Positions 1,736 through 63,756 of a stretch of 64,000 nucleotides of DNA are shown here, in pieces; positions within the stretch are counted from its first letter, which is position 1; each line of letters begins with the position of its first letter. The position numbers and the translations under genes are program-made. Origin of the DNA: an uncultured Gammaproteobacteria bacterium (GTDB lineage Bacteria; Patescibacteriota; Patescibacteriia; Magasanikbacterales; GWA2-37-8); NCBI GenBank assembly GCA_964641245.1, contig CAZXML010000003.1:17395-81394 (forward strand), read 5' to 3'. The notes under the pieces were generated by a model that saw only the letters and a list, made by a program, of their open reading frames with translations, was not told the DNA's origin and did not search any database.

Positions 1736-1840
1736 TGTCATCCTGACTCGCAAATTGTCATTCTGAGTGAAACGAAGAATCTCTGTCTGGTCTGTTTGAA
1801 AACTACAAGATAGAGATCCTTCATTGCATTCAGGATGACA
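1736..1840. repeat. Family B palindromic MITE-like element (inverted orientation) with an extra partial arm
   Basis: tgtcattctgagtgaaacgaagaatctctgtc ... gatagagatccttcattgcattcaggatgaca. Same arms as copies at 3512, 15455 and 32171. Confidence 0.8.
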
Positions 1841-3511: not shown

Positions 3512-3589
3512 TGTCATCCTGAATGCAATGAAGGATCTCTGTCTCAATCGCCGAACGGACAGAGATTCTTCGCTTCACTCAGAATGACA
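3512..3589. repeat. Family B palindromic MITE-like element (compact copy)
   Basis: tgtcatcctgaatgcaatgaaggatctctgtc + 14 nt + gacagagattcttcgcttcactcagaatgaca. Confidence 0.85.
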
Positions 3590-6642: not shown

Positions 6643-6708
6643 TGTCATCCTGAACTTGTTTCAGGATCTAATCGAGATACCAGATGCTGAACTAAATTCA
6701 GCATGACA
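6643..6708. repeat. Family A palindromic double-hairpin element
   Basis: gtcatcctgaacttgtttcaggatc ... gatgctgaactaaattcagcatgaca. Confidence 0.85.
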
Positions 6709-15454: not shown

Positions 15455-15538
15455 TGTCATCCTGAACGCAGTGAAAGATCCCTGTCAGTCATTGTTTGGT
15501 CAATCGGGGAGAGATTCTTCGCTATGCTCAGAATGACA
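15455..15538. repeat. Family B palindromic MITE-like element
   Basis: tgtcatcctgaacgcagtgaaagatccctgtc ... gagagattcttcgctatgctcagaatgaca. Confidence 0.8.
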
Positions 15539-17562: not shown

Positions 17563-19197
17563 CTAAATCAATGCCTGTCCCGTCATATCTTCCGGTTGCG
17601 GAACACCCAGTAATTTTAAAACAGTTGGCGCCACGTCTGCCAATACCCCTACCGGATGCATTAAACTCAAATCCCCTTCCGGCGCGTCTCCAGCCGGGCC
17701 GGCTTGTCCCATAAACTCTTTGCCGATAACAATAAGAGGCACCGGATTGGTGGAATGTTCTTTGTCTATGGCGCCAGTCTGCAAATTAGTCATTTCTTCC
17801 GCGTTGCCATGATCGGCGGTAATCACCACCACTCCGTTTTGCGCCAAAGTATGATCCACAATTTCTCCCAAACATTTGTCGGTGACTTCACAGGCTTTAA
17901 TACCCGCTTGCAAATCCCCGGTATGAGCGACCATATCCGCGTTGGCCAGATTTAAAACCACAAAATCATATTTGGCGCTGTCAATCATTTTGCTTACTTC
18001 TTTGGTAATTTCTATCGCGGACATTTCCGGTTTTTGATCGTAACTGGAAACTTTTGCCGAAGGAATCATTAATCTGTCTTCTCCGGCAAACGGATTCTCT
18101 ACCGTGCCGTTTAAAAAGAAAGTAACGTGGGCGTATTTTTCCGTTTCGGCCACATGCATTTGCTTTAAACCGGCTTTACTGATTACTTCCGCCAAACTGT
18201 TGTGTACCACTATCGGCGCGTAAGCCACCACCGCCGGCAGTTCTTTTTCGTACTCGGTCATGGTGACGAAAAATAAATCTTTTTGATATTCTTTGGTGAA
18301 TTTATTAAAGGAAGGAACCACAAATGCCTGGGTTAATTCCCGCGCGCGGTCCGGTCTGAAGTTAAAAAATATCACCGCGTCATTATTATCTATGGTGGCC
18401 ACCGGTTTATCCTTGGAAGTTATAACCGTGGGAATAAATTCTTCATCGTAATTTTTTTGCGCGTAAGCTTCATCTATTACTTTAATGGGGTCTTCGGCAT
18501 ACCGATCGGCTTTGCCTTCAGCCATAGCGCGGTAGGCTTTTTCGCATCTGTCCCAACGGTTGTCGCGGTCCATGGCATAATAGCGCCCGGATAGAGTGGC
18601 GATTTTTCCCACTTTTAATTCGGACATTTTACCCTGCAGTTCCTGAACAAATTCTTTTCCGGAATTATACAGAGCGTCGCGGCCGTCTAAAATAGCATGG
18701 ATAAATACATTCTTTGTTAATTTTTCTTTTTTACAAAGTTCCAGTAAAGCGTAAAGATGCGCATTGCTGGCATGCACATTTCCGGAACTGACCAAACCAA
18801 CCAAATGCAATTTTGGTTTAGCGAAACCATGCCGCGTACCGTCATTTGAAACGCGGCTTTCTTCTTTTACTTTGGCAATGGCCGATAAAAGCGCGGGGTT
18901 GGAAAAAAACGCCCCGCTTTCTATTTCCTGATTTATTCTTGGACAACTTTGATAATAAACCCGGCCGGCGCCGATGTTTAAATGACCCACTTCCGAGTTT
19001 CCCATCTCGCCAAACATTAACCCCACTTCACTGCCCGAAGCGTGGATAGTCATGGTGGGATAATTTTTTAGAAATTTTACAAAATTAGGCGTTTGCGCCT
19101 TGGTGATGGCGTTGCCGTCCGCGCCCGGAGCAACACCCCAGCCATCCATGATGATCAAAATAACTGGTTTATAATTCATACAATTTATAATTGTCAT
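17563..19197 (-). CDS. gpmI: 2,3-bisphosphoglycerate-independent phosphoglycerate mutase
   Basis: 544 aa. IIMDGWG N-terminus and metal-binding Ser/His/Asp pattern of iPGM. Confidence 0.9.
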   Translation of the reverse strand: MTIINCMNYKPVILIIMDGWGVAPGADGNAITKAQTPNFVKFLKNYPTMTIHASGSEVGLMFGEMGNSEVGHLNIGAGRVYYQSCPRINQEIESGAFFSNPALLSAIAKVKEESRVSNDGTRHGFAKPKLHLVGLVSSGNVHASNAHLYALLELCKKEKLTKNVFIHAILDGRDALYNSGKEFVQELQGKMSELKVGKIATLSGRYYAMDRDNRWDRCEKAYRAMAEGKADRYAEDPIKVIDEAYAQKNYDEEFIPTVITSKDKPVATIDNNDAVIFFNFRPDRARELTQAFVVPSFNKFTKEYQKDLFFVTMTEYEKELPAVVAYAPIVVHNSLAEVISKAGLKQMHVAETEKYAHVTFFLNGTVENPFAGEDRLMIPSAKVSSYDQKPEMSAIEITKEVSKMIDSAKYDFVVLNLANADMVAHTGDLQAGIKACEVTDKCLGEIVDHTLAQNGVVVITADHGNAEEMTNLQTGAIDKEHSTNPVPLIVIGKEFMGQAGPAGDAPEGDLSLMHPVGVLADVAPTVLKLLGVPQPEDMTGQALI

Positions 19198-19249
19198 GCT
19201 GAACTTGTTTCAGCATCTCTTGATAGATCCTGAAATGAATTCAGGATGA
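19192..19249. repeat. Family A palindromic element (its ATGACA terminus supplies the gpmI start codon)
   Basis: tgtcatgctgaacttgtttcagcatc ... gatcctgaaatgaattcaggatga. Confidence 0.8.
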
Positions 19250-19256
19250 TGTTGAT

Positions 19257-20807
19257 TTAAATCAAACTTTTCGCTGTCATTTCCGGTGGCTGTTTTATGC
19301 CCATCATTTTTAAAATAGTGGGAGCAACATTGGCCAGCTTGCCGTCCGGCAATTTAAGAGGCGCCGGCACGCGGCTGTTTATTAGAATAAACGGCACCGG
19401 ATTAAGTGAGTGTTCGGTATCAGGTTCGCCACTTTGCTCCTTTATCATTTCTTCTACATTTCCATGATCCGCAGTGACAACTGCCTGTCCGCCGTGTTTT
19501 GTTAAAACTTTAATTACGCGCGCCATTTCGGCATCGACAATACTTACTCCTTTTTGCGCGGAGGCAAAATTTCCCGTATGCGCCACCATATCCATATTGG
19601 CAAAATTCATGGCAATAAACTCGTATTCACCCGATTCAATGGCGCCAATTGCGTAATCGGCCAGCAGTTTGGCGCTCATCTCCGTATTGTTCTCATAATT
19701 TTTTACTCCCAATGAGGCGATTTTTACCCACTTTTCATTGCAAAAATGCTGCGCGTAACCGCCATTAAAAAAATAAGTAATATGCGCAAATTTTTCCGAT
19801 TCCGCTATGTACATTTGTTTTCTGGGACATAATACTTGCACCAAGCTATTGGTAACATCTCGGCTGGGAAAAGCGGTAAGTACCCCCGGTAAATCCGGGC
19901 CAAAATCACTAAGAGCTACAAAGCGGATATTTTTTGGATACTTTTCTCTTGTAAACGCTCCGGGATTAAGCTCTTTAAAATTTGGCTGCACAAAAACTTT
20001 GGTAATTTGCCGCGCCCGGTCGCTGCGTAAATTAAAAAAGAAAATAGCATCATTGTCTTTTATGGTGGCTACGGGATGATTATTTTCCATAATTACCGTG
20101 GGAGAAACAAATTCGTCCGTGTCTTCGTGATTATAGGCGTTTCTAAGACCGTCTTCAATGCTTGTGGCGCTAAATCCCTTGCCCAAAACCATAGCTTCAT
20201 AAGCTTGCTTGACGCGGTTCCAATCTTTATTTCTGTCCATAGCATAAAAACGGCCCATTACGGTGGCCACTTTTTCATTGCCATGAAAAAATTTTTCCAG
20301 AAGCCGCAAATGCTTGTGCGCTTCGTATTGGCCGGAATCCCGACCGTCCGTAAAAAGATGCAGATAAACCTTTTTTATTTTTTCGAGATGAAATAACTCC
20401 AACAAAGCCTGGAGATGCTCCGGGCAAGAATGCGCGCTGCTATGATTAGATAATAATCCCATTACGTGAACTGCGGTTTTATATTTTTTTACATGATGAA
20501 TCGCTTCGTGGAAGGCGTTATTTTTAAAAAACGTGCCGTCTTCAATTGAGTCGGATATATAAAGCGCGTCTTGTTTTACCACTCTGCCCGCGCCTAAATT
20601 TAAATGACCGGCTTCACTGTTGCCTGCCTGCCCCTTAAACAGCCCGACACTCTCACCGCTGGCCTCCAATTTGCAATTAGGATATTTTTTAAGCGCCCTA
20701 AAATAATTTGGCGCTGTTTTGGGAGTGATTGGATTGCCCGGTTCATGAGGGTTTCCAATTCCCCAACCATCTACAATCATTAAAAGTGTTGTTTTAAATT
20801 TTTTCAT
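19257..20807 (-). CDS. gpmI: iPGM paralog (second 2,3-BPG-independent phosphoglycerate mutase)
   Basis: 516 aa. LLMIVDGWGIG and homology throughout to the upstream copy. Confidence 0.85.
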   Translation of the reverse strand: MKKFKTTLLMIVDGWGIGNPHEPGNPITPKTAPNYFRALKKYPNCKLEASGESVGLFKGQAGNSEAGHLNLGAGRVVKQDALYISDSIEDGTFFKNNAFHEAIHHVKKYKTAVHVMGLLSNHSSAHSCPEHLQALLELFHLEKIKKVYLHLFTDGRDSGQYEAHKHLRLLEKFFHGNEKVATVMGRFYAMDRNKDWNRVKQAYEAMVLGKGFSATSIEDGLRNAYNHEDTDEFVSPTVIMENNHPVATIKDNDAIFFFNLRSDRARQITKVFVQPNFKELNPGAFTREKYPKNIRFVALSDFGPDLPGVLTAFPSRDVTNSLVQVLCPRKQMYIAESEKFAHITYFFNGGYAQHFCNEKWVKIASLGVKNYENNTEMSAKLLADYAIGAIESGEYEFIAMNFANMDMVAHTGNFASAQKGVSIVDAEMARVIKVLTKHGGQAVVTADHGNVEEMIKEQSGEPDTEHSLNPVPFILINSRVPAPLKLPDGKLANVAPTILKMMGIKQPPEMTAKSLI

Positions 20808-22088: not shown

Positions 22089-22157
22089 TGTCATGCTGAA
22101 CTCGTTTCAGCATCTACTGTACACTTGATTAGATCCTGAAACAAGTTCAGGATGACA
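22089..22157. repeat. Family A palindromic element
   Basis: tgtcatgctgaactcgtttcagcatc ... gatcctgaaacaagttcaggatgaca. Confidence 0.85.
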
Positions 22158-23123: not shown

Positions 23124-23211
23124 TGTCATTGCGAGGAGCCGTAGCGACGTGGCAATCCCATTGTCGGTACTACCAGTACTTTGGGATTGCTTCGCTAAGC
23201 TCGCAATGACA
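23124..23211. repeat. Family C palindromic element (gtcattgcgag...gcaatccc / gggattgc...ctcgcaatgac)
   Basis: Near-reverse-complement twin at 63668-63756. Confidence 0.85.
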
Positions 23212-24451: not shown

Positions 24452-25504
24452 TTACTCCGTTAAATTTTCATACCCAACCTCATCCGGCCACAAATAATGG
24501 TCAAAAGTCCATTCCGCCAAATCACGCGCTTCGCTGAATCTGGCTTCATTGGTGGCGGCGCCGAATATTACCACCGTGATGCCGTGTTTTTTTTCATTGC
24601 TTAAACTGACAACAAAATTATAGCCGGAGTCGTCTATGTAGCCGGTTTTGCCGGCGATGTTTTCCACTTTAAAATTATTGGGAATCCAGTTTGTTAACAG
24701 CCAGTTGGTTGTCCAAACTCTTCTGAGTTTATTGCCGTTTAGCGGTTGGACGTAATACTCTCCGGTCTGCACAGTGGTAAAAATTTTATCAAATTTTAAA
24801 GCGTCTATGAGCAGTTTGGCCGTATCCAGCGCATTGGCCATATTTTTACCGGATAACCCGGTTGGCTCGCTAAAACGGGCCGACGCCAGACGCAAATCTT
24901 TTGCTTTGGCGTTCATCAAACCGACAAACGCCTCTTTGGAAATTCCGGAATTTCTTACTAGCGCGTTAATAGATGCGTTGGAAGAACCAATTAATGCTAC
25001 ATGCCACAAATCTTCCAAGGTGAATTTTTCGCCCACATTAACATGATGATCCCCGGCCACATCGTCGTCCATAATTACGGTTGTTGACGCCCAATCAACC
25101 GGCAAATCCATTAATACCATGGCGGTCATTAATTTAGTAATGCTGGCCAGTGAACGAACTTCGCCGGTATTTTTACTGAATAAAACAGTTTTTGTTTTGG
25201 TGTCTACCACGATCGCCTCGGCGGCCGTGCTGGAACCGGAAAAAACAACCTTATCTTTTGCCAGAGGAACAGCTGGTTTGCTGGCCGGTAAATTTTCCAG
25301 ATAAACATCCCCGCCGGCCATTACTCTTTTACCGCCTGCCTGGCCGGCAGGCAGGCTGGCGGGAAATTTAAGAAAACTAAGATTATTTCCGGGAGCAAAA
25401 AAAACCGAAGAAAAAAATAACAATAAAACGCCGGCCAGCATTATGCCGAAGGATGATAAAAAATCTGTGACTTTGTTGGACATACTTTTCGCGCGGTTTG
25501 TCAT
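24452..25504 (-). CDS. D-alanyl-D-alanine carboxypeptidase (peptidase S11, PBP5/6-like)
   Basis: 350 aa. SxxK (SITK), SxN (SSN) and KTG motifs. N-terminal TM anchor. Confidence 0.8.
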   Translation of the reverse strand: MTNRAKSMSNKVTDFLSSFGIMLAGVLLLFFSSVFFAPGNNLSFLKFPASLPAGQAGGKRVMAGGDVYLENLPASKPAVPLAKDKVVFSGSSTAAEAIVVDTKTKTVLFSKNTGEVRSLASITKLMTAMVLMDLPVDWASTTVIMDDDVAGDHHVNVGEKFTLEDLWHVALIGSSNASINALVRNSGISKEAFVGLMNAKAKDLRLASARFSEPTGLSGKNMANALDTAKLLIDALKFDKIFTTVQTGEYYVQPLNGNKLRRVWTTNWLLTNWIPNNFKVENIAGKTGYIDDSGYNFVVSLSNEKKHGITVVIFGAATNEARFSEARDLAEWTFDHYLWPDEVGYENLTE

Positions 25505-25559
25505 GCTGAACTTGTTTCAGCATCTTTCGTGTAGATCCTGAAACAAGTTCAGGATGACA
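25499..25559. repeat. Family A palindromic element (ATGACA terminus is the dacA-like start codon)
   Basis: tgtcatgctgaacttgtttcagcatc ... gatcctgaaacaagttcaggatgaca. Confidence 0.85.
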
Positions 25560-26133: not shown

Positions 26134-26844
26134 CTAGTTTTTAGTAACTAATAAATCTTCAAACGCGTTTACCTGCCGGAAACGAACCGATTGCTGTTTG
26201 ACTAATTCCAGAATGGCTAAAAAACTGACTATGACTTCGGTTTTATTTTGCGCCGAGGACAGCAAATTTTTAAAGCTGAATTCTTTTCCGCTTTTTAATA
26301 ACTCACGGATGGAGTCTATTTTTTGCTTGATGGAAATAGAATGATCGATGCTTACCTTTGGCAACGGCTCCAGCGGTTTTAAGCGGTTAAGCAGAAAAAC
26401 CATGGAGTTGTACAAATTATTCGTAGTGGCATTGACCGGTAAAACAAATTCTTTAGACTTTATCGGCGGCTCAATTCTGCCGTAAGCAATTTTATTGGCC
26501 TCCCACAAACTATTTACGGTCTTACTGGCCTCTACATACTGTTTGTATAATTTTAACTGATCCGCCAGCCCCGGACCAGTATCCTCTTCTTCGGGAAACG
26601 CGTACTGCAACAAGCTATGCGATTTTAAATAAATAAGCCGGGCGGCAACAACCAAAAAATCTGCCAGTTCTTCGGGACGATTTTTTTCCAGCTTGTCTAA
26701 ATAGGAAAAAAACTGCTCGGTAACTTTGGCTAAGGCAATTTCGGTGATGCTTAACTTTTCCTGATCAACCAGTTGCAACAATAAATCCAAAGGCCCTTCA
26801 AATTTTTCCAGTTTTAGTTCTTGCATATAACTTACTTTTGTCAT
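26134..26844 (-). CDS. scpA: Segregation and condensation protein A
   Basis: 236 aa. LELLLQLVDQEKLSITEIALAKVTEQF. Confidence 0.8.
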   Translation of the reverse strand: MTKVSYMQELKLEKFEGPLDLLLQLVDQEKLSITEIALAKVTEQFFSYLDKLEKNRPEELADFLVVAARLIYLKSHSLLQYAFPEEEDTGPGLADQLKLYKQYVEASKTVNSLWEANKIAYGRIEPPIKSKEFVLPVNATTNNLYNSMVFLLNRLKPLEPLPKVSIDHSISIKQKIDSIRELLKSGKEFSFKNLLSSAQNKTEVIVSFLAILELVKQQSVRFRQVNAFEDLLVTKN

Positions 26845-26910
26845 CCTGAACTTGTTTCAGGATCTTTCGAATCTGACGGCGATAGATGCTGAAACAAGTT
26901 CAGCATGACA
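26839..26910. repeat. Family A palindromic element (ATGACA terminus is the scpA start codon)
   Basis: tgtcatcctgaacttgtttcaggatc ... gatgctgaaacaagttcagcatgaca. Confidence 0.85.
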
Positions 26911-30686: not shown

Positions 30687-30770
30687 CCCCTCTCTCTGTC
30701 TCTCCCCTAAAAGGGGAGAGGACGATTGAGTGAATTGACATTGCCTGTCGTGGTCGTTCCTCCCCGCTTT
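30687..30770. repeat. Family E palindromic element (cccctctctctgtctctcccctaaaaggggagagg) plus a related tcgttcctcccc half
   Basis: Other copies at 43515-43625 and 45792-45886. Confidence 0.8.
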
Positions 30771-32145: not shown

Positions 32146-32170
32146 AATATTTTTAATAAATTATTTTAAT

Positions 32171-32534
32171 TGTCATCCTGAATGAAATGAAGGATCTCTG
32201 TCTTGTCCAATTAACTGATTATACAAGTCCTGCCATCTAAAATTTTGTTTTGTTATGATTTCCACTTTTCTATTACGCTTCCAGCCTTTCAATTCTTTTT
32301 CTCTTTTAATAGCATCATTTATATTAAAAAAGTGTTCATAATATACCAATTTTTTACACTTATATTTTTTCGTAAAGCCATCGATTATTCCGGCTCTGTG
32401 TTCTTCTACTCGTCTAATAAGGTCATTTGTCACTCCTATATAATACACAACTTACACTAGCCATTATGTATACATAATAATTGTGATTGGCCATAAGAAA
32501 CAGACAGAGATTCTTCGCTTTGCTCAGAATGACA
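32171..32534. mobile_element. Family B element, full-length form: its terminal inverted repeats enclose a GIY-YIG ORF
   Basis: Left arm tgtcatcctgaatgaaatgaaggatctctgtc (32171-32202) and right arm gacagagattcttcgctttgctcagaatgaca (32503-32534). These are the same arms that bound the about 80 bp MITE copies. The ORF stop TGA lies inside the left arm. The right arm is followed by a 3x atgggaca tandem. Confidence 0.6.
32173..32448 (-). CDS. GIY-YIG nuclease family protein (UPF0213/YhbQ-like), N-terminally truncated
   Basis: YYIGVTNDLIRRVEEHRAG = YxG...TxDLxRRxxEH core. GTG start with in-frame TAA two codons upstream. The first beta-strand (GIY) is missing. Confidence 0.65.
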   Translation of the reverse strand: MYYIGVTNDLIRRVEEHRAGIIDGFTKKYKCKKLVYYEHFFNINDAIKREKELKGWKRNRKVEIITKQNFRWQDLYNQLIGQDRDPSFHSG

Positions 32535-32560
32535 ATGGGACAATGGGACAATGGGACAAT
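32535..32560. repeat. Tandem repeat (atgggaca)x3 abutting the family B right terminus
   Basis: Seen directly. The unit resembles the element terminus (attgtca / attgtccc on the minus strand). Confidence 0.7.
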
Positions 32561-32578
32561 ACCGAAATTATACCGCAA

Positions 32579-33934
32579 CTAAACGACTTTCGCAAATATA
32601 CATTTCAAATACTCCCCTTCGGTAAAAGCCACCAATTCCGGATGGTCTATGCCGTGGGTATAGGTTTCCAAAACCTGCAAAGTCTGGCGCGCCCGGCCGG
32701 CTGATTCGGATAACATATATCTAAAATCAGATAAAGTAACGTGGGCCGAACAAGAGGCTGTAATCAGTACGCCACCTGGTGATAATAATCGTAAAGACGC
32801 TTCGTTTATTTTTTTATAACCAATTAATCCTTCCTGAACTTTGCGCCTGTCTTTTACAAAGGCCGGCGGATCCAGGATGATGATGTCAAATTGACTTGAA
32901 CCTGACCTCACCCTGCCCTCTCCTCGCAGGAGAGGATTTATCGACTCCTTCTCCTTTGAGGAGAAGGTTGGGATGAGGTCTGGATTATTCAAATACTGCT
33001 TCACATCCCCGCAAATAAATTCGCATTTTTTTAAATCTAATTTATTAAGTTTTACGTTTTCTTGGGCCAATTCCAAGGCGCTCTGAGAAGAATCCACGCT
33101 AATCACATGCTTGGCTCCCCCGCCCAAAGCATAGACGCTAAACCCGCCGGAATAAGAAAAACAGTTCAAAACATTTTTATCTTCCGCGTATTTCATCAAC
33201 GCCTGTCTTTTATCGCGCTGGTCCAGAAAAAAACCGGTTTTTTGCCCGCCAATCACATCCACCCAGAACTTAAATCCGTTTTCAATAATTTTTATTCTCT
33301 CAGGCACTTTGCCATACAATAGGCCTGCGAGCGCTGTTTTATTTGTCATTCCGACGTCGAAGGAGGAATCTCTGTCTGGTTGTTTCGCGGAAGGGTGAGA
33401 CAGAGATCCCTCGTCGGCTACGGCCTCGCTCGGGATGACAATGTGCCGCTTAAGCCTCTGCGCCACATCCGATCTTTCATAAATACCGGTTGGTTTTAAG
33501 ATTTTTTTTAAGGCGTCAACGATTTTATCTTTCCACACTTCCATGCCCTGCGTATGAAACTGCAACACCAAATAATCCGCGTATTTGTCTACAATCAACC
33601 CGGGCAACAAATCGTTTTCACTGTGAACCATGCGGTAAGAATCCGTATTTTTACTAGCCACAAAATTCTTTCTGATGGCATAGGCCTGATTAATTCTTTT
33701 TTCAAAAAATTTGTCATCCACCGTTTCCTGTTCGTCCCAACTCCAAAGCCGCACCGCTATTTGCGAATAAGAATTAAAATATCCCTGCGCCAGAAATTGA
33801 CCTTCTTCGTTTACCAAAATCACCGCTTCGCCGCTTTTTAGGCCTTCGGGAATCTGTTTGAGCGCGCCAGAAAATACCCACGGGTGACGGCCAAGGATAG
33901 GACCAATTCTTTGTTTTTGAACAACCAACTTCAT
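32579..33934 (-). CDS. rlmI: 23S rRNA m5C methyltransferase RlmI-like (PUA + class I MTase) with two in-frame palindromic-repeat insertions
   Basis: Start MKLVVQKQRIGPILGRHPWVF. FDIIILDPPAF and SAM-binding GGFS motifs. Insertions at 32903-32979 and 33344-33440. Confidence 0.75.
   Translation of the reverse strand: MKLVVQKQRIGPILGRHPWVFSGALKQIPEGLKSGEAVILVNEEGQFLAQGYFNSYSQIAVRLWSWDEQETVDDKFFEKRINQAYAIRKNFVASKNTDSYRMVHSENDLLPGLIVDKYADYLVLQFHTQGMEVWKDKIVDALKKILKPTGIYERSDVAQRLKRHIVIPSEAVADEGSLSHPSAKQPDRDSSFDVGMTNKTALAGLLYGKVPERIKIIENGFKFWVDVIGGQKTGFFLDQRDKRQALMKYAEDKNVLNCFSYSGGFSVYALGGGAKHVISVDSSQSALELAQENVKLNKLDLKKCEFICGDVKQYLNNPDLIPTFSSKEKESINPLLRGEGRVRSGSSQFDIIILDPPAFVKDRRKVQEGLIGYKKINEASLRLLSPGGVLITASCSAHVTLSDFRYMLSESAGRARQTLQVLETYTHGIDHPELVAFTEGEYLKCIFAKVV
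32903..32979. repeat. Family F palindromic element inside rlmI (in-frame)
   Basis: gacctcaccctgccctctcctcgcaggagagg ... ctccttctcctttgaggagaaggttgggatgaggtc. Encodes PTFSSKEKESINPLLRGEGRVRSGSS. Confidence 0.75.
33344..33440. repeat. Family B2 palindromic element inside rlmI (in-frame)
   Basis: tgtcattccgacgtcgaaggaggaatctctgtc ... gagacagagatccctcgtcggc...cgggatgaca. Related copy at 35529-35624. Confidence 0.8.
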
Positions 33935-34019
33935 CATGATAAATGGATTATTAATAATTGAGAGTATACCAAACAAAAACACCCAGCGCAATGGCCGGGT
34001 GTTTTCTTAATATAAATTT

Positions 34020-35528: not shown

Positions 35529-35624
35529 TGTTATTCCGACAACGAAGGAGGAATCTCTGTCCTCTTCGCTTCGAAACCACCAGACAGAGATCCCTCGTCG
35601 GCGCGAGCCTCGCTCGGGATGACA
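35529..35624. repeat. Family B2 palindromic element
   Basis: ttattccgacaacgaaggaggaatctctgtc ... cagacagagatccctcgtcggcgcgagcctcgctcgggatgaca. Confidence 0.75.
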
Positions 35625-43517: not shown

Positions 43518-43625
43518 TACTTCGTCGTTCCTCCCCCTTTTAGGGGGAGGGCAGGGTGGGGGTATTTGTTCGTGGTACAACCGCCGATATACCCCTCTCT
43601 CTATCTCTCCCCTAAAAGGGGAGAG
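43515..43625. repeat. Two family E palindromic elements (ccccctttta ggggg / cccctctctctatctctcccctaaaaggggagag)
   Basis: Seen directly. Same family as 30687 and 45792. Confidence 0.8.
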
Positions 43626-45323: not shown

Positions 45324-46182
45324 TATGTTGGATTTTGATTTGCTAAAGGCGCATGCCATAAAAAAACCAAAAGAATTTTTATACTCTCATCCCGAATATC
45401 GTTTATCAGTTTGGCAAAAACTGCGTTTAAAATATTTTCTCTCCCTGCGCAAAAAGGGCTATTCCGTAGCCGTCATTACCAAGCATAAAGAATTTTACGG
45501 CTTGGATTTTTTTGTGAATAAACACGTTTTAATCCCCCGCCCCGACACCGAGTTGATGGTGGCAGAAGCGATCGAAGAAATTAAAAAAAATGATAAGATA
45601 ATTTTAGTTGATGTTGGTACCGGAAGCGGGTGCATACCAATTTCTATTTTAAAAAATATACCAAACCAAATACAAACATTTGCGACCGATATTTCGAACG
45701 CGGCTTTGCGAGTAGCGAAAAAAAATGCCCGAATACATAATGTGAACATTAAATTTTTCCACGGTAACTTGCTTGAACCAATTTTCAAAAACCCCTCTCT
45801 CTGTCTCTCCCCTTATAGGGGAGAGAGGAACGAACTCCTCTCTGTAGTTCCCTCCCCTATAAGGGGAGGGGCGAAGGGTGGGGTTTTCATCACCGCCAAC
45901 CTCCCCTACCTTACCAAACAACAATTTCAATCCGAACCGAGCATTCAAAAAGAACCAAAAATCGCACTCACGGCAAAAAATAACGGCTTGGCTTTATACG
46001 AAGAATTATTTAATCAAATAAAAAATGCCGGTCTGACAGCAACTATACTTACAGAAATCGACCCTTCTCAAACCGATGCAATCTCCCAACTTATAAACCA
46101 ATATCTTCCCGGCTCAAAAATTGAAATAAAAAAAGACCTCGCCGGGCGAGATCGTTTAGTAAAAATTGTCATGTCATCCTGA
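45307..46182 (+). CDS. prmC: Release factor glutamine methyltransferase PrmC/HemK with in-frame repeat insertion
   Basis: VLIPRPDTE and VGTGSGCI motifs. The NPPY box reads NLPY. A 30-aa insertion ([30 protein letters not shown]) is encoded by a family E palindrome. The stop codon is supplied by a family A repeat. Confidence 0.8.
45792..45886. repeat. Family E palindromic element pair inside prmC (in-frame)
   Basis: cccctctctctgtctctccccttataggggagagg ... ttccctcccctataaggggaggggcgaagggtgggg. Confidence 0.8.
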
Positions 46183-46237
46183 ACTTGTTTCAGGATCTGT
46201 CACCAACCAAAGATGCTGAAATAAATTCAGCATGACA
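46173..46237. repeat. Family A palindromic element
   Basis: tgtcatcctgaacttgtttcaggatc ... gatgctgaaataaattcagcatgaca. Confidence 0.85.
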
Positions 46238-47334: not shown

Positions 47335-47419
47335 TGTCATCCTGAACTTGTTTCAGGATCTTCGTTATTGTTCCGTAGATGCTGAAACAAGTAGATCCTG
47401 AAACAAGTTCAGGATGACA
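47335..47419. repeat. Family A palindromic element (three-hairpin variant)
   Basis: tgtcatcctgaacttgtttcaggatc..gatgctgaaacaagtagatcctgaaacaagttcaggatgaca. Confidence 0.85.
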
Positions 47420-48197: not shown

Positions 48198-48222
48198 ATG
48201 ATAATATTATTTTGTCATGCTG

Positions 48223-48270
48223 AATTTATTTCAGCATCTACGTAGATCCTGAAACTAGTTCAGGATGACA
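48223..48270. repeat. Family A palindromic element
   Basis: tgtcatgctgaatttatttcagcatc..gatcctgaaactagttcaggatgaca. Confidence 0.85.
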
Positions 48271-53267: not shown

Positions 53268-55586
<2,319 letters not shown>

Positions 55587-56048: not shown

Positions 56049-56189
56049 TGTCATCCTGAACTTGTTTCAGGATCTCTGTCCGTGAGTTGTCATTCCCGCC
56101 CGAGAGCGGGAATCCAGTCGACGATTGTCTGGATTCCCAATCAAGTTGGGAATGACATGCGCAGATGCTGAAATAAATTCAGCATGACA
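56049..56189. repeat. Family A element with a nested family D element (56088-56157)
   Basis: tgtcatcctgaacttgtttcaggatctctgtccgtgagt[tgtcattcccgcccgagagcgggaatccag...ggattcccaatcaagttgggaatgaca]tgcgcagatgctgaaataaattcagcatgaca. Confidence 0.8.
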
Positions 56190-56773: not shown

Positions 56774-56912
56774 TGTCATTCTGAGCACAGCGAAGAATCC
56801 CTCTCTGTCATTCTCGCCAAAGCGGGAATCCAGTGTCCGATTGTCTGGATTCCCATTGTTATGGGAATGACAATTAAACGGACAGAGATCCTTCACTACG
56901 TTCAGGATGACA
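56774..56912. repeat. Family B element (inverted) with a nested family D element (56816-56872)
   Basis: tgtcattctgagcacagcgaagaatccctctc[tgtcattctcgccaaagcgggaatccag...ggattcccattgttatgggaatgaca]attaaacggacagagatccttcactacgttcaggatgaca. Confidence 0.8.
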
Positions 56913-63667: not shown

Positions 63668-63756
63668 TGTCATTGCGAGCAAAGCGAAGCAATCCCAAAG
63701 TACTGGTAGTGCCGGACAGTGGGATTGCCGCGTCGCTACGGCTCCTCGCAATGACA
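63668..63756. repeat. Family C palindromic element (twin of 23124-23211)
   Basis: tgtcattgcgagcaaagcgaagcaatccc...gggattgccgcgtcgctacggctcctcgcaatgaca. Confidence 0.85.

Follow-up and report, generated by a model that had tools for sequence, protein, structure and literature searches.

The closest described counterparts of the locus treated here are the Ssn proteins, GIY-YIG nucleases that are site-specific for single-stranded DNA (ssDNA) and bind hairpins composed of GTC, an AT-palindrome and C (NTS/SRM), which usually border their own gene (Chenal et al. 2025, Nat Commun 16:2388; PMC11893778). In Neisseria meningitidis, SsnA is a single-domain GIY-YIG protein of 94 aa (CDD cd10448) with Y6, Y17 and E64 as catalytic residues. 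It binds the NTS, CGTCATTCCCGCGMAVGCGGGAATCYRG, only as ssDNA, shows no RNA binding and cuts a few nt upstream, the C right after the palindrome being critical for binding and the preceding GTC for cutting (PMC11893778). In the survey of homologues by the same authors, an SRM was found nearby in 71% and on both sides in 42%, and their Discussion likens NTS-ssnA-NTS to insertion sequence (IS) elements and to repetitive extragenic palindromes (REPs) with their RAYT genes (PMC11893778). REPs with a CGTC or TGTC tag and AT-initiated stems were described by Di Nocera, De Gregorio and Rocco (2013, BMC Genomics 14:522; PMC3733652). They have a stem of 8-9 bp, a loop of 4-5 nt and a 3-nt CCA-like tail, form head-to-head dimers that are often heterodimers, include intragenic copies as well as the Neisseria dRS3 and Rickettsia RPE-4 and RPE-6 repeats, and were said to have "no dedicated transposase" (PMC3733652). 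Here we describe a GIY-YIG gene lying between two inverted hairpin repeats (the arms) in a 64-kb stretch of DNA, called the window, from a metagenome-assembled genome (MAG) of groundwater Patescibacteria (Candidatus Magasanikbacteria).

Judged from its sequence, this locus is very probably an ssn cassette, that is, an Ssn-family GIY-YIG gene bracketed by two cognate hairpin repeats in a Magasanikbacteria genome. It is not a new kind of element, the system itself and its analogy with IS elements and REP/RAYT having been published in 2025 (PMC11893778). The two arms (32169-32203 and 32502-32536) have 35 nt each, are 80% complementary and lie 298 nt apart, and the window holds 4 copies of the 32-nt pattern of the left arm where 0 would be expected (none in shuffles). 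Both face inwards and follow the plan tGTC-AT...AT-C, GTC preceding the palindrome and C following it directly, and the same inward plan is found at the arms of five related loci (L002, L003, L007, L010 and L039). The upstream arm, with a T-A pair in the stem (T-type), ends 8 nt from the ATG of the gene. The downstream (left) arm, with a C-G pair (C-type), encodes the TGA stop and the final 9-10 codons (QDRDPSFHSG). An initial annotation of the window had proposed the inverted arms around a GIY-YIG gene, the arm-encoded end of its reading frame and three 8-nt repeats beside the right arm, and all of these were borne out.

Exactly this pair of arms, T-type and C-type in the same inward orientation, is present in the short doublets of the same repeat family (family B) elsewhere in the window, and the gene-less family B doublets are structurally the cassette minus the gene. 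Four short copies had initially been listed with spacers of 14-25 nt. Three of them (1757-1839, 3513-3588 and 15456-15537) do have spacers of ~14-22 nt, while in the fourth (56775-56911) the arms enclose ~87 nt with a nested doublet.

The 8-nt repeats (GACAATGG) begin within the outer end of the upstream arm. Read on the gene strand, they correspond to (CC)ATTGTC x4, the final copy being the start of the arm. In L003 and L007 the same site has only ~15 nt and no repeat, so we consider the repeats a 16-nt expansion specific to the window lineage. It is located where a nick by Ssn would fall, and nick-and-repair slippage as its origin is only a guess. A promoter-like site lies just upstream of the cassette, and its TATAAT is kept in L003, in L007 and in the cassette-free relative L024. 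Since it is kept even there, it suggests that the cassette sits within what is otherwise the leader of the gene for glyceraldehyde-3-phosphate dehydrogenase (GAPDH). The arm terminus ATGACA was also considered as a -35 box for GAPDH and discarded, for it matches 9/12 consensus positions, no better than shuffles. The cassette showed no T-tracts of the kind seen in terminators.

The enclosed gene is of the ssn type and is a recent pseudogene. The open reading frame (ORF) at 32173-32448 on the minus strand has 91 aa, a GTG start and a match to Pfam PF01541 GIY-YIG (E=2.6e-11). The initial annotation had taken the first GIY strand as missing, which is wrong, since the strand ('NYYVYIMAS') is present in another frame. 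A second minus-strand ORF (32423-32578) that contains it ends in '...MANHNYYVYIMASVSCVLYRSDK', and 'MANHNYYVYIMASVSCVLY' is encoded at 32438-32494 in a frame different from that of the 91-aa ORF. By tblastn, residues 1-19 are placed at 32494-32438 and residues 16-107 at 32451-32176, again in different frames. A 2-nt deletion in a TATATA run (~32437-32443) breaks the 107-aa gene. With the TA restored, the 107-aa protein aligns end to end and without gaps to intact homologues (75-86% identity). The N-terminus of the intact homologues reads MANHNYYVYIMASVSxVLYIGVTNDL, with the longer consensus MxNHNYYVYIMASVSxVLYIGVTNDLIRRVEEH, and the repaired protein matches PF01541 with E=1.5e-13 (profile positions 1-76 of 78, protein residues 5-77). 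The GTG start and the upstream TAA, which had been cited as signs of decay, are by-products of the frameshift.

We consider an assembly error behind the frameshift unlikely, because an independent contig from a JGI metagenome (L001), 99.96% identical over 15.5 kb with 6 SNPs, has the identical frameshift; both assemblies are metagenomic. The gene call on that contig is the same 91-aa fragment. A programmed frameshift was rejected as well, since a TA run has simply lost 2 nt and the close homologues are all in frame. In annotations, the 91-aa ORF should be named a frameshifted ssn gene, and its 'DRDPSFHSG' tail is repeat-encoded.

The repaired protein has a single domain and no other one, and its 107 aa fall under the 150-aa limit used for Ssn proteins. 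Tyr9, Tyr19 and Glu66 are invariant or nearly so in the homologue alignment, and the spacing of 47 between Tyr19 and Glu66 equals that between Y17 and E64 in SsnA of N. meningitidis. As the frameshift parts Y9 from the rest of the protein, the product of this copy should be inactive. No NCBIfam model matched the protein, and a tblastn search of the 64 kb (E<=100) found no other GIY-YIG gene, only matches of the arm-encoded tail.

From the databases, 7959 homologues were recovered at E<=0.001, the Ssn-type relatives having E values of 1e-29 to 1e-56 and lengths of 87-142 aa. The nearest named ones belong to Candidatus Magasanikbacteria and the Patescibacteria group, and Magasanikbacteria MAGs were also among the matches when species genomes were scanned with the phosphoglycerate kinase (PGK). 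Other arm pairs enclosing intact GIY-YIG genes do exist. Four independent loci with intact close homologues (L002, L003, L007 and L010), in two genomic contexts, have the same arm-gene-arm design, with an arm of T-type loop 10-15 nt upstream of the ATG. The C-type arm abuts the stop in L007 and L010 and overlaps it in the window, L002 and L003, and therefore we see the arm-encoded tail as a variable by-product. Such repeat-encoded tails (DRDPSLRSG, IDPSSA, VDAETSSA) or heads (N-terminal CHSEQSEESLS) are common in the homologues. Even a homologue from an alphaproteobacterial MAG with 55% identity (P0107, locus L039) has arms on both sides, in this case family A-like with 8-bp stems and compensatory differences. 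Four other genomes, covering two contexts, have these arm types placed in the same way around start and stop, which supports the view that the arms go with the gene, as opposed to chance insertions of miniature inverted-repeat transposable elements (MITEs).

The survey was then widened to 71 homologue loci from metagenomes, each with 150 nt or more of sequence to either side. Arms in the expected orientation were found upstream in 24, downstream in 30 and on both sides in 19. With a background of 0.56 arms per kb on both strands, ~0.045 would be expected per search window, and the orientation-specific enrichment is ~8-fold. Arms resembling the window families A, B, C and E each adjoin some homologue. 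The published search motif, HGTCWYN(0-2)YYVSBRHN(0-5)WNVSBRGN(0-2)RNCYNB, which for Ssn genes is to lie within 500 bp on both the 5' and 3' side, in its literal form flanks only 13 of the 71 loci, whose proteins are 52-60% identical to ours over the matched 80-95%; at two of them, L074 and L089, the flanking repeats have the NTS consensus of Neisseria exactly.

In the second context (P0003 and P0005), the gene order is an RF-1-domain gene, ssn, a UPF0213-like GIY-YIG gene and a PIF1 helicase. In two other Magasanikbacteria MAGs (L002, 10001-12280; L010, 9287-11626), the UPF0213-like gene and the PIF1-family helicase come directly after ssn. The UPF0213-like neighbor in L002 is 34% identical to Ssn. 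A PIF1-family helicase would generate the ssDNA needed by Ssn.

The cassette is bordered by the genes of a PUA-domain methyltransferase and GAPDH in three lineages: that of the window, that of the P0001 loci (L003-L006) and that of the P0004 loci (L007-L009). Across these lineages the identities are 86-90% for GAPDH, 79-80% for the methyltransferase and 82-86% for Ssn. A syntenic relative, Patescibacteria bacterium H51-bin093_1 (L024 and L036), has ~78-86% nucleotide identity in genes and no arms in the 13.7 kb available. Its methyltransferase-GAPDH spacer has 58 nt, as taken from the alignment, against ~430 nt with the arm-gene-arm unit in the window. It also lacks the doublets at 19193, 22090, 23125, 25500 and 26840 and the in-frame inserts of the methyltransferase. 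Cassette and doublets therefore are shown to vary by presence and absence. Given its fixed genomic position and single copy, the gene is better seen as resident and RAYT-like than as a hopping IS.

Repeats of the same plan are dense in the window. A structural detector, requiring GTCAT together with a stem of 5 bp or more, found 38 arms, against 2.2 +/- 1.5 in dinucleotide shuffles. It took the place of the literal SRM regular expression, which at 2 mismatches gave 81 matches in the window, barely more than the 56 in shuffles. Of the 38 arms, 36 can be assigned to families, of which there are at least 5, and all 36 begin with tGTC-AT, the common plan being tGTC, a palindrome that begins and ends with AT, and then C. 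Family A has an 8-bp stem, ATCCTGAA or ATGCTGAA, and a 5-nt loop. Family B, the one around the gene, has a 5-bp stem (ATCCT or ATTCT) and an 11-nt GA-rich loop, followed by CTCTGTC. Family C consists of ATTCCCGC/GCGGGAAT and then CCAG, family D lies inside or beside coding sequence, and family E has the form ATTGC...GCAAT. An Rfam scan of the window returned two tRNAs only and no RNA family for the repeats.

Nearly all arms are paired head-to-head as doublets at gene boundaries, with ~1 doublet per 3.5 kb. A doublet consistently combines two variants, which in family A are a C-G and a G-C arm (8 of 9 doublets) and in family B a C-G and a T-A arm. The differences between arms are compensatory within each arm, so that the local hairpin is kept while the long inter-arm stem is mismatched. 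In a loop-anchored search without pairing requirement, 27 of 29 B-type arms had complementary inner stems, with 4 pair types. Arms of families A and C fold well as ssDNA (z = -3.6 to -4.8). Pairwise arm identity is 86-87% in family B and 91-94% in family A (n = 5-10), a higher divergence of family B that is weakly compatible with decay.

The initial annotation had proposed a selfish element with non-autonomous derivatives. Taken literally, this would make arm-gene-arm the autonomous IS-like unit of an active transposon, moving as a unit, and the doublets its MITEs mobilised in trans. The terminal-inverted-repeat architecture shared by cassette and doublets would fit it, as would the syntenic relative devoid of both, the nested doublets at 56050-56188 and 56775-56911, and the occurrence of close ssn relatives in the second context described above. 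However, the methyltransferase-GAPDH position is constant in three lineages with an Ssn divergence similar to that of the flanking genes, the 64 kb hold a single, frameshifted GIY-YIG gene, and no transposase domain and, in six filled/empty comparisons, no target-site duplication were seen. GIY-YIG enzymes are hydrolytic nucleases, and we know of no strand-transfer chemistry in this superfamily. Moreover, the characterised Ssn proteins cut ssDNA only (PMC11893778). The locus thus lacks the marks of an autonomous IS with derived MITEs (a transposase, target-site duplications, several copies at non-orthologous sites), and an active selfish transposon appears unlikely. Nor does it resemble a GIY-YIG homing endonuclease, in which the nuclease is joined to a DNA-binding domain and which resides in an intron or intein or stands free in a phage, for it has a single domain and lies between housekeeping genes.

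Two independent MITE or REP insertions around an unrelated resident gene could be imagined, given doublets so dense and nearly always at gene boundaries. Such a coincidence would not explain why four other genomes, in two contexts, have the same arm variants at unchanged distances from start and stop, nor the orientation-specific enrichment among the 71 loci, nor the absence of the whole arm-bounded unit at the orthologous site of L024, and it is at odds with the published flanking of homologues on both sides (PMC11893778). We regard it as extremely improbable. The hairpins could instead act in RNA or transcription, as terminators, mRNA stabilisers or regulators of neighbors, with a link to the GIY-YIG gene that is regulatory and not one of nuclease and substrate. 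Doublets do lie at gene ends, between convergent or tandem genes, a whole doublet folds strongly (-16 kcal/mol, z = -4.1), and REPs of other bacteria have such roles (PMC3733652). Against this, the cassette lacks terminator-like T-tracts, the repeats have no Rfam match, copies occur in both orientations and even inside coding sequence, the compensatory differences keep local hairpins and weaken the long inter-arm stem, and SsnA of N. meningitidis does not bind RNA (PMC11893778). An RNA role in place of a nuclease-substrate link is therefore quite improbable, although less so than mere coincidence.

For the ssn cassette, which we prefer, the mechanism can be sketched by analogy with SsnA (PMC11893778). 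The intact protein would bind the folded arm as ssDNA only, through the palindrome and the C that directly follows, and the arm would be recognised when extruded as a hairpin in ssDNA. The cut would fall a few nt 5' of the GTC tag, in flanking DNA outside the cassette or doublet and on opposite strands at the two ends. Nicking plus host repair or replication may then, hypothetically, spread or maintain doublets in a REPIN/RAYT-like manner, while the cassette would keep its fixed chromosomal position. With the nuclease of family B inactive in this genome, the repeats of that family are probably relics. Families A, C and E are better conserved and would depend on further ssn paralogues located beyond the window.

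Several observations weigh against this reading. Exact matches to the SRM regular expression number 0 in the 64-kb window, and the expression fits the upstream arm with 2 mismatches and the downstream arm not at all. Family B arms, with their 5-bp stem and 11-nt loop, fold no more stably than shuffles when standard DNA parameters are used, and for this reason the covariation is the evidence for their hairpin. The cognate gene of family B is dead, so nothing in the window acts on family B repeats now. At the six filled/empty sites no target-site duplication is definable, the intergenic DNA being ~20% diverged, and the GAPDH identities, compared with a view to gain versus loss, put L003, L007 and L024 at roughly equal distances.

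A broader scenario can be put forward only tentatively. Ssn cassettes and two-variant doublets might replicate as partners in the manner of REPIN/RAYT, with a hydrolytic GIY-YIG ssDNA nickase as the driving enzyme in place of an HUH transposase, and might recently have populated gene boundaries and even coding sequence in this lineage of the candidate phyla radiation (CPR). The six filled/empty sites (relative at ~80% nucleotide identity) would then be insertions, the frameshifted gene would mark the death of one partnership, and the arms with 5-bp stem and GA-rich loop would be a recognition class outside the SRM motif. If this were true, a nickase-driven partnership would be a mode of DNA mobility without characterised chemistry.

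Table. Features of the cassette and repeat doublets in the 64-kb window (positions are those of the window)
Feature	Position	Strand or arms	Remarks
ssn-type GIY-YIG nuclease gene, pseudogene here	32173..32494	-	ATG 32494-32492, TGA 32175-32173
Upstream (5') arm	32502..32534	-	Family B T-type: tGTC-ATTCT-gagcaaagcga-AGAAT-Ctctgtc
Downstream (3') arm, inverted vs gene	32171..32203	+	Family B C-type: tGTC-ATCCT-gaatgaaatga-AGGAT-Ctctgtc
Tandem 8-nt repeat, GACAATGG x3	32531..32560	.	Begins within outer end of upstream arm
Promoter-like site TTGCGA-17-TATAAT	32567..32595	-	Just upstream of cassette; 10/12 consensus positions, consensus match only
Family B doublet	1737..1840	T-type 1757-1781 (+), C-type 1815-1839 (-)	21-nt spacer; partial extra arm at 1737
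Family B doublet	3512..3589 (arms 3513-3588)	C-type (+), T-type (-)	14-nt spacer
Family B doublet	15455..15538 (arms 15456-15537)	Degenerate C-type arm plus T-type arm	C-type arm with broken stem
Family B doublet	56774..56912 (arms 56775-56911)	T-type (+), C-type (-)	Family C (NTS-like) doublet nested at 56805-56872
Family A doublet	6643..6708	One C-type and one G-type arm	8-bp stems: tGTC-ATCCTGAA-cttgt-TTCAGGAT-C, tGTC-ATGCTGAA-..-TTCAGCAT-C
Family A doublet	19192..19251		Between two iPGM genes; absent at L036 orthologous site
Family A doublet	22089..22157		Upstream of enolase; absent in L036
Family A doublet	25499..25559		Absent in L024
Family A doublet	26839..26910		Between AspRS and ScpA; absent in L024
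Family A doublet	46172..46237		
Family A doublet	47335..47419	Two C-type arms	Internal truncated G-type arm
Family A doublet	48213..48270		
Family A doublet	56049..56189		Family C doublet (tGTC-ATTCCCGC-ccgaga-GCGGGAAT-CCAG) nested at 56088-56157
Family E doublet	23124..23211		tGTC-ATTGC-...-GCAAT-Ccca; overlaps PGK gene 3' end; absent in L036
Family E doublet	63668..63756		
Doublet, family D/B-like arms	33344..33441		In frame within PUA-methyltransferase coding sequence (32579-33991, -); translated ...HIVIPSEAVADEGSLSHPSAKQPDRDSSFDVGMT...; absent in L024
Single family D arm	35588..35624	-	GTCATCCCGAG...CGAGGGATCT; just downstream of EF-Ts gene

The nesting of family C doublets in spacers of families A and B points to insertion into doublets already in place, or to spacers as favored sites. 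At the site of the insert in the methyltransferase gene, L003 and L007 hold a different insert in the same loop (...VGAQNLVPT.../...WARHALP...), and L024 has only ~43 nt. The site has the look of a surface loop in which palindromic inserts are tolerated again and again. The same coding sequence holds another in-frame insert, of ~72 nt (32890-32990), composed of two other small palindromes, CCTTCTCCTCAAAGGAGAAGG and CCTCTCCTGCGAGGAGAGG. It is translated as FSSKEKESINPLLRGEGRVRS and is present in L007 and not in L024. The 39-nt family D arm at 33404-33442 is 100% identical to positions 8138-8176 of L002 (MAG GCA_013558295.1), the genes of which are otherwise not alignable to the window at the DNA level. 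This identity implies either a strong constraint on the arm or horizontal spread.

The glycolysis cluster of the window (two iPGM genes, enolase, PGK and GAPDH) is interspersed with repeats. The two iPGM genes (17563-20807) are tandem paralogues of 544 and 516 aa with only a family A doublet between them. The PGK frame enters a family E doublet (23195-23211), which supplies the last codons and the stop, and the repeat-free orthologue in L036 stops a few codons earlier. An unrelated palindrome without GTC tag, TCTCCCCT-NNN-AGGGGAGA, has 4 copies in the window (30701-30719, 43606-43624, 45806-45824 and 45851-45869) against 0.01 expected. Upstream of a 750-aa ORF at 53334, three GC-rich hairpins ending in GGGACCCCG were noted (53277-53444), which were picked up only as weak matches in the fuzzy SRM scan.

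These results place the Ssn/repeat system in Patescibacteria, with at least 5 co-resident families for the 36 assigned arms. They also reveal a cognate arm class that the published search motif misses, which implies that motif-based surveys undercount the association. In our opinion, the main value of the locus lies in the filled/empty sites and the dead-nuclease contrast, both bearing on whether Ssn spreads its repeats. Orthologous filled and empty sites for cassette and doublets are the type of data with which Ssn-driven repeat spread can be tested. The natural case of a dead nuclease, with a divergence of family B above that of family A in a small sample, hints that repeat maintenance depends on the enzyme.

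Compared with the Ssn/NTS system, the locus has the same kind of single-domain GIY-YIG protein of ~100 aa, its gene lying between inward-facing hairpins of (C/T)GTC, AT-palindrome and C that are also dispersed intergenically. Family C is nearly the Neisseria NTS (TGTCATTCCCGC..GCGGGAATCCAG against CGTCATTCCCGCGMAVGCGGGAATCYRG), with 1 mismatch to the SRM expression. On the other hand, the host is a MAG of the Patescibacteria (CPR), a group unmentioned in the text of the Ssn paper (PMC11893778), and the cognate family B arms, with their short stem and long GA-rich loop, escape the published expression. The presence of at least 5 arm families in 64 kb, the strict two-variant heterodimers and the frameshift of the gene are further differences. 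With the CGTC-tagged REPs (PMC3733652) the repeats share the unpaired CGTC/TGTC tag, the stems starting with AT, short 3' tails, the head-to-head dimers that are often heterodimers and, now and then, a copy inside a gene. An 8-bp stem and a loop of 4-6 nt, in keeping with the published description, are found in families A and C, the latter with a CCAG tail, whereas the stems of families B, D and E have 5 bp and their loops 11-19 nt, outside that description, with a CTC tail in family B. The enzyme gene, both here and in Chenal et al. (2025), is a GIY-YIG ssn.

The initial label of UPF0213/YhbQ type was too loose. Proteins of that type are also small stand-alone GIY-YIG domains, and the nearest solved structures by sequence are Bacillus halodurans BH0048 (PDB 1ZG2; profile E=2e-9) and Enterococcus faecalis EF2693 (PDB 1YWL; E=7e-6), the PDB matches being UPF0213 structures only, with no Ssn structure among them. 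However, the BLASTP match to Escherichia coli YhbQ is local (31 residues, 30 bits) with no full-length similarity, in contrast to the 52-60% identity with the Ssn-type proteins flanked by SRM or NTS. To our knowledge, no association of YhbQ with hairpin repeats has been reported. The remaining comparison is with the REPIN/RAYT systems (REPtrons), reportedly described by Nunvar in 2010, Bertels and Rainey in 2011 and Ton-Hoang in 2012. The enzyme differs, being a hydrolytic GIY-YIG nuclease and not an HUH/Y1 tyrosine transposase of the IS200/IS605 type, and the tag is GTC and not GTAG. The organization is alike in both: a single-copy, vertically inherited gene is flanked by palindromes that also occur genome-wide as inverted doublets, and these doublets are present or absent between relatives.

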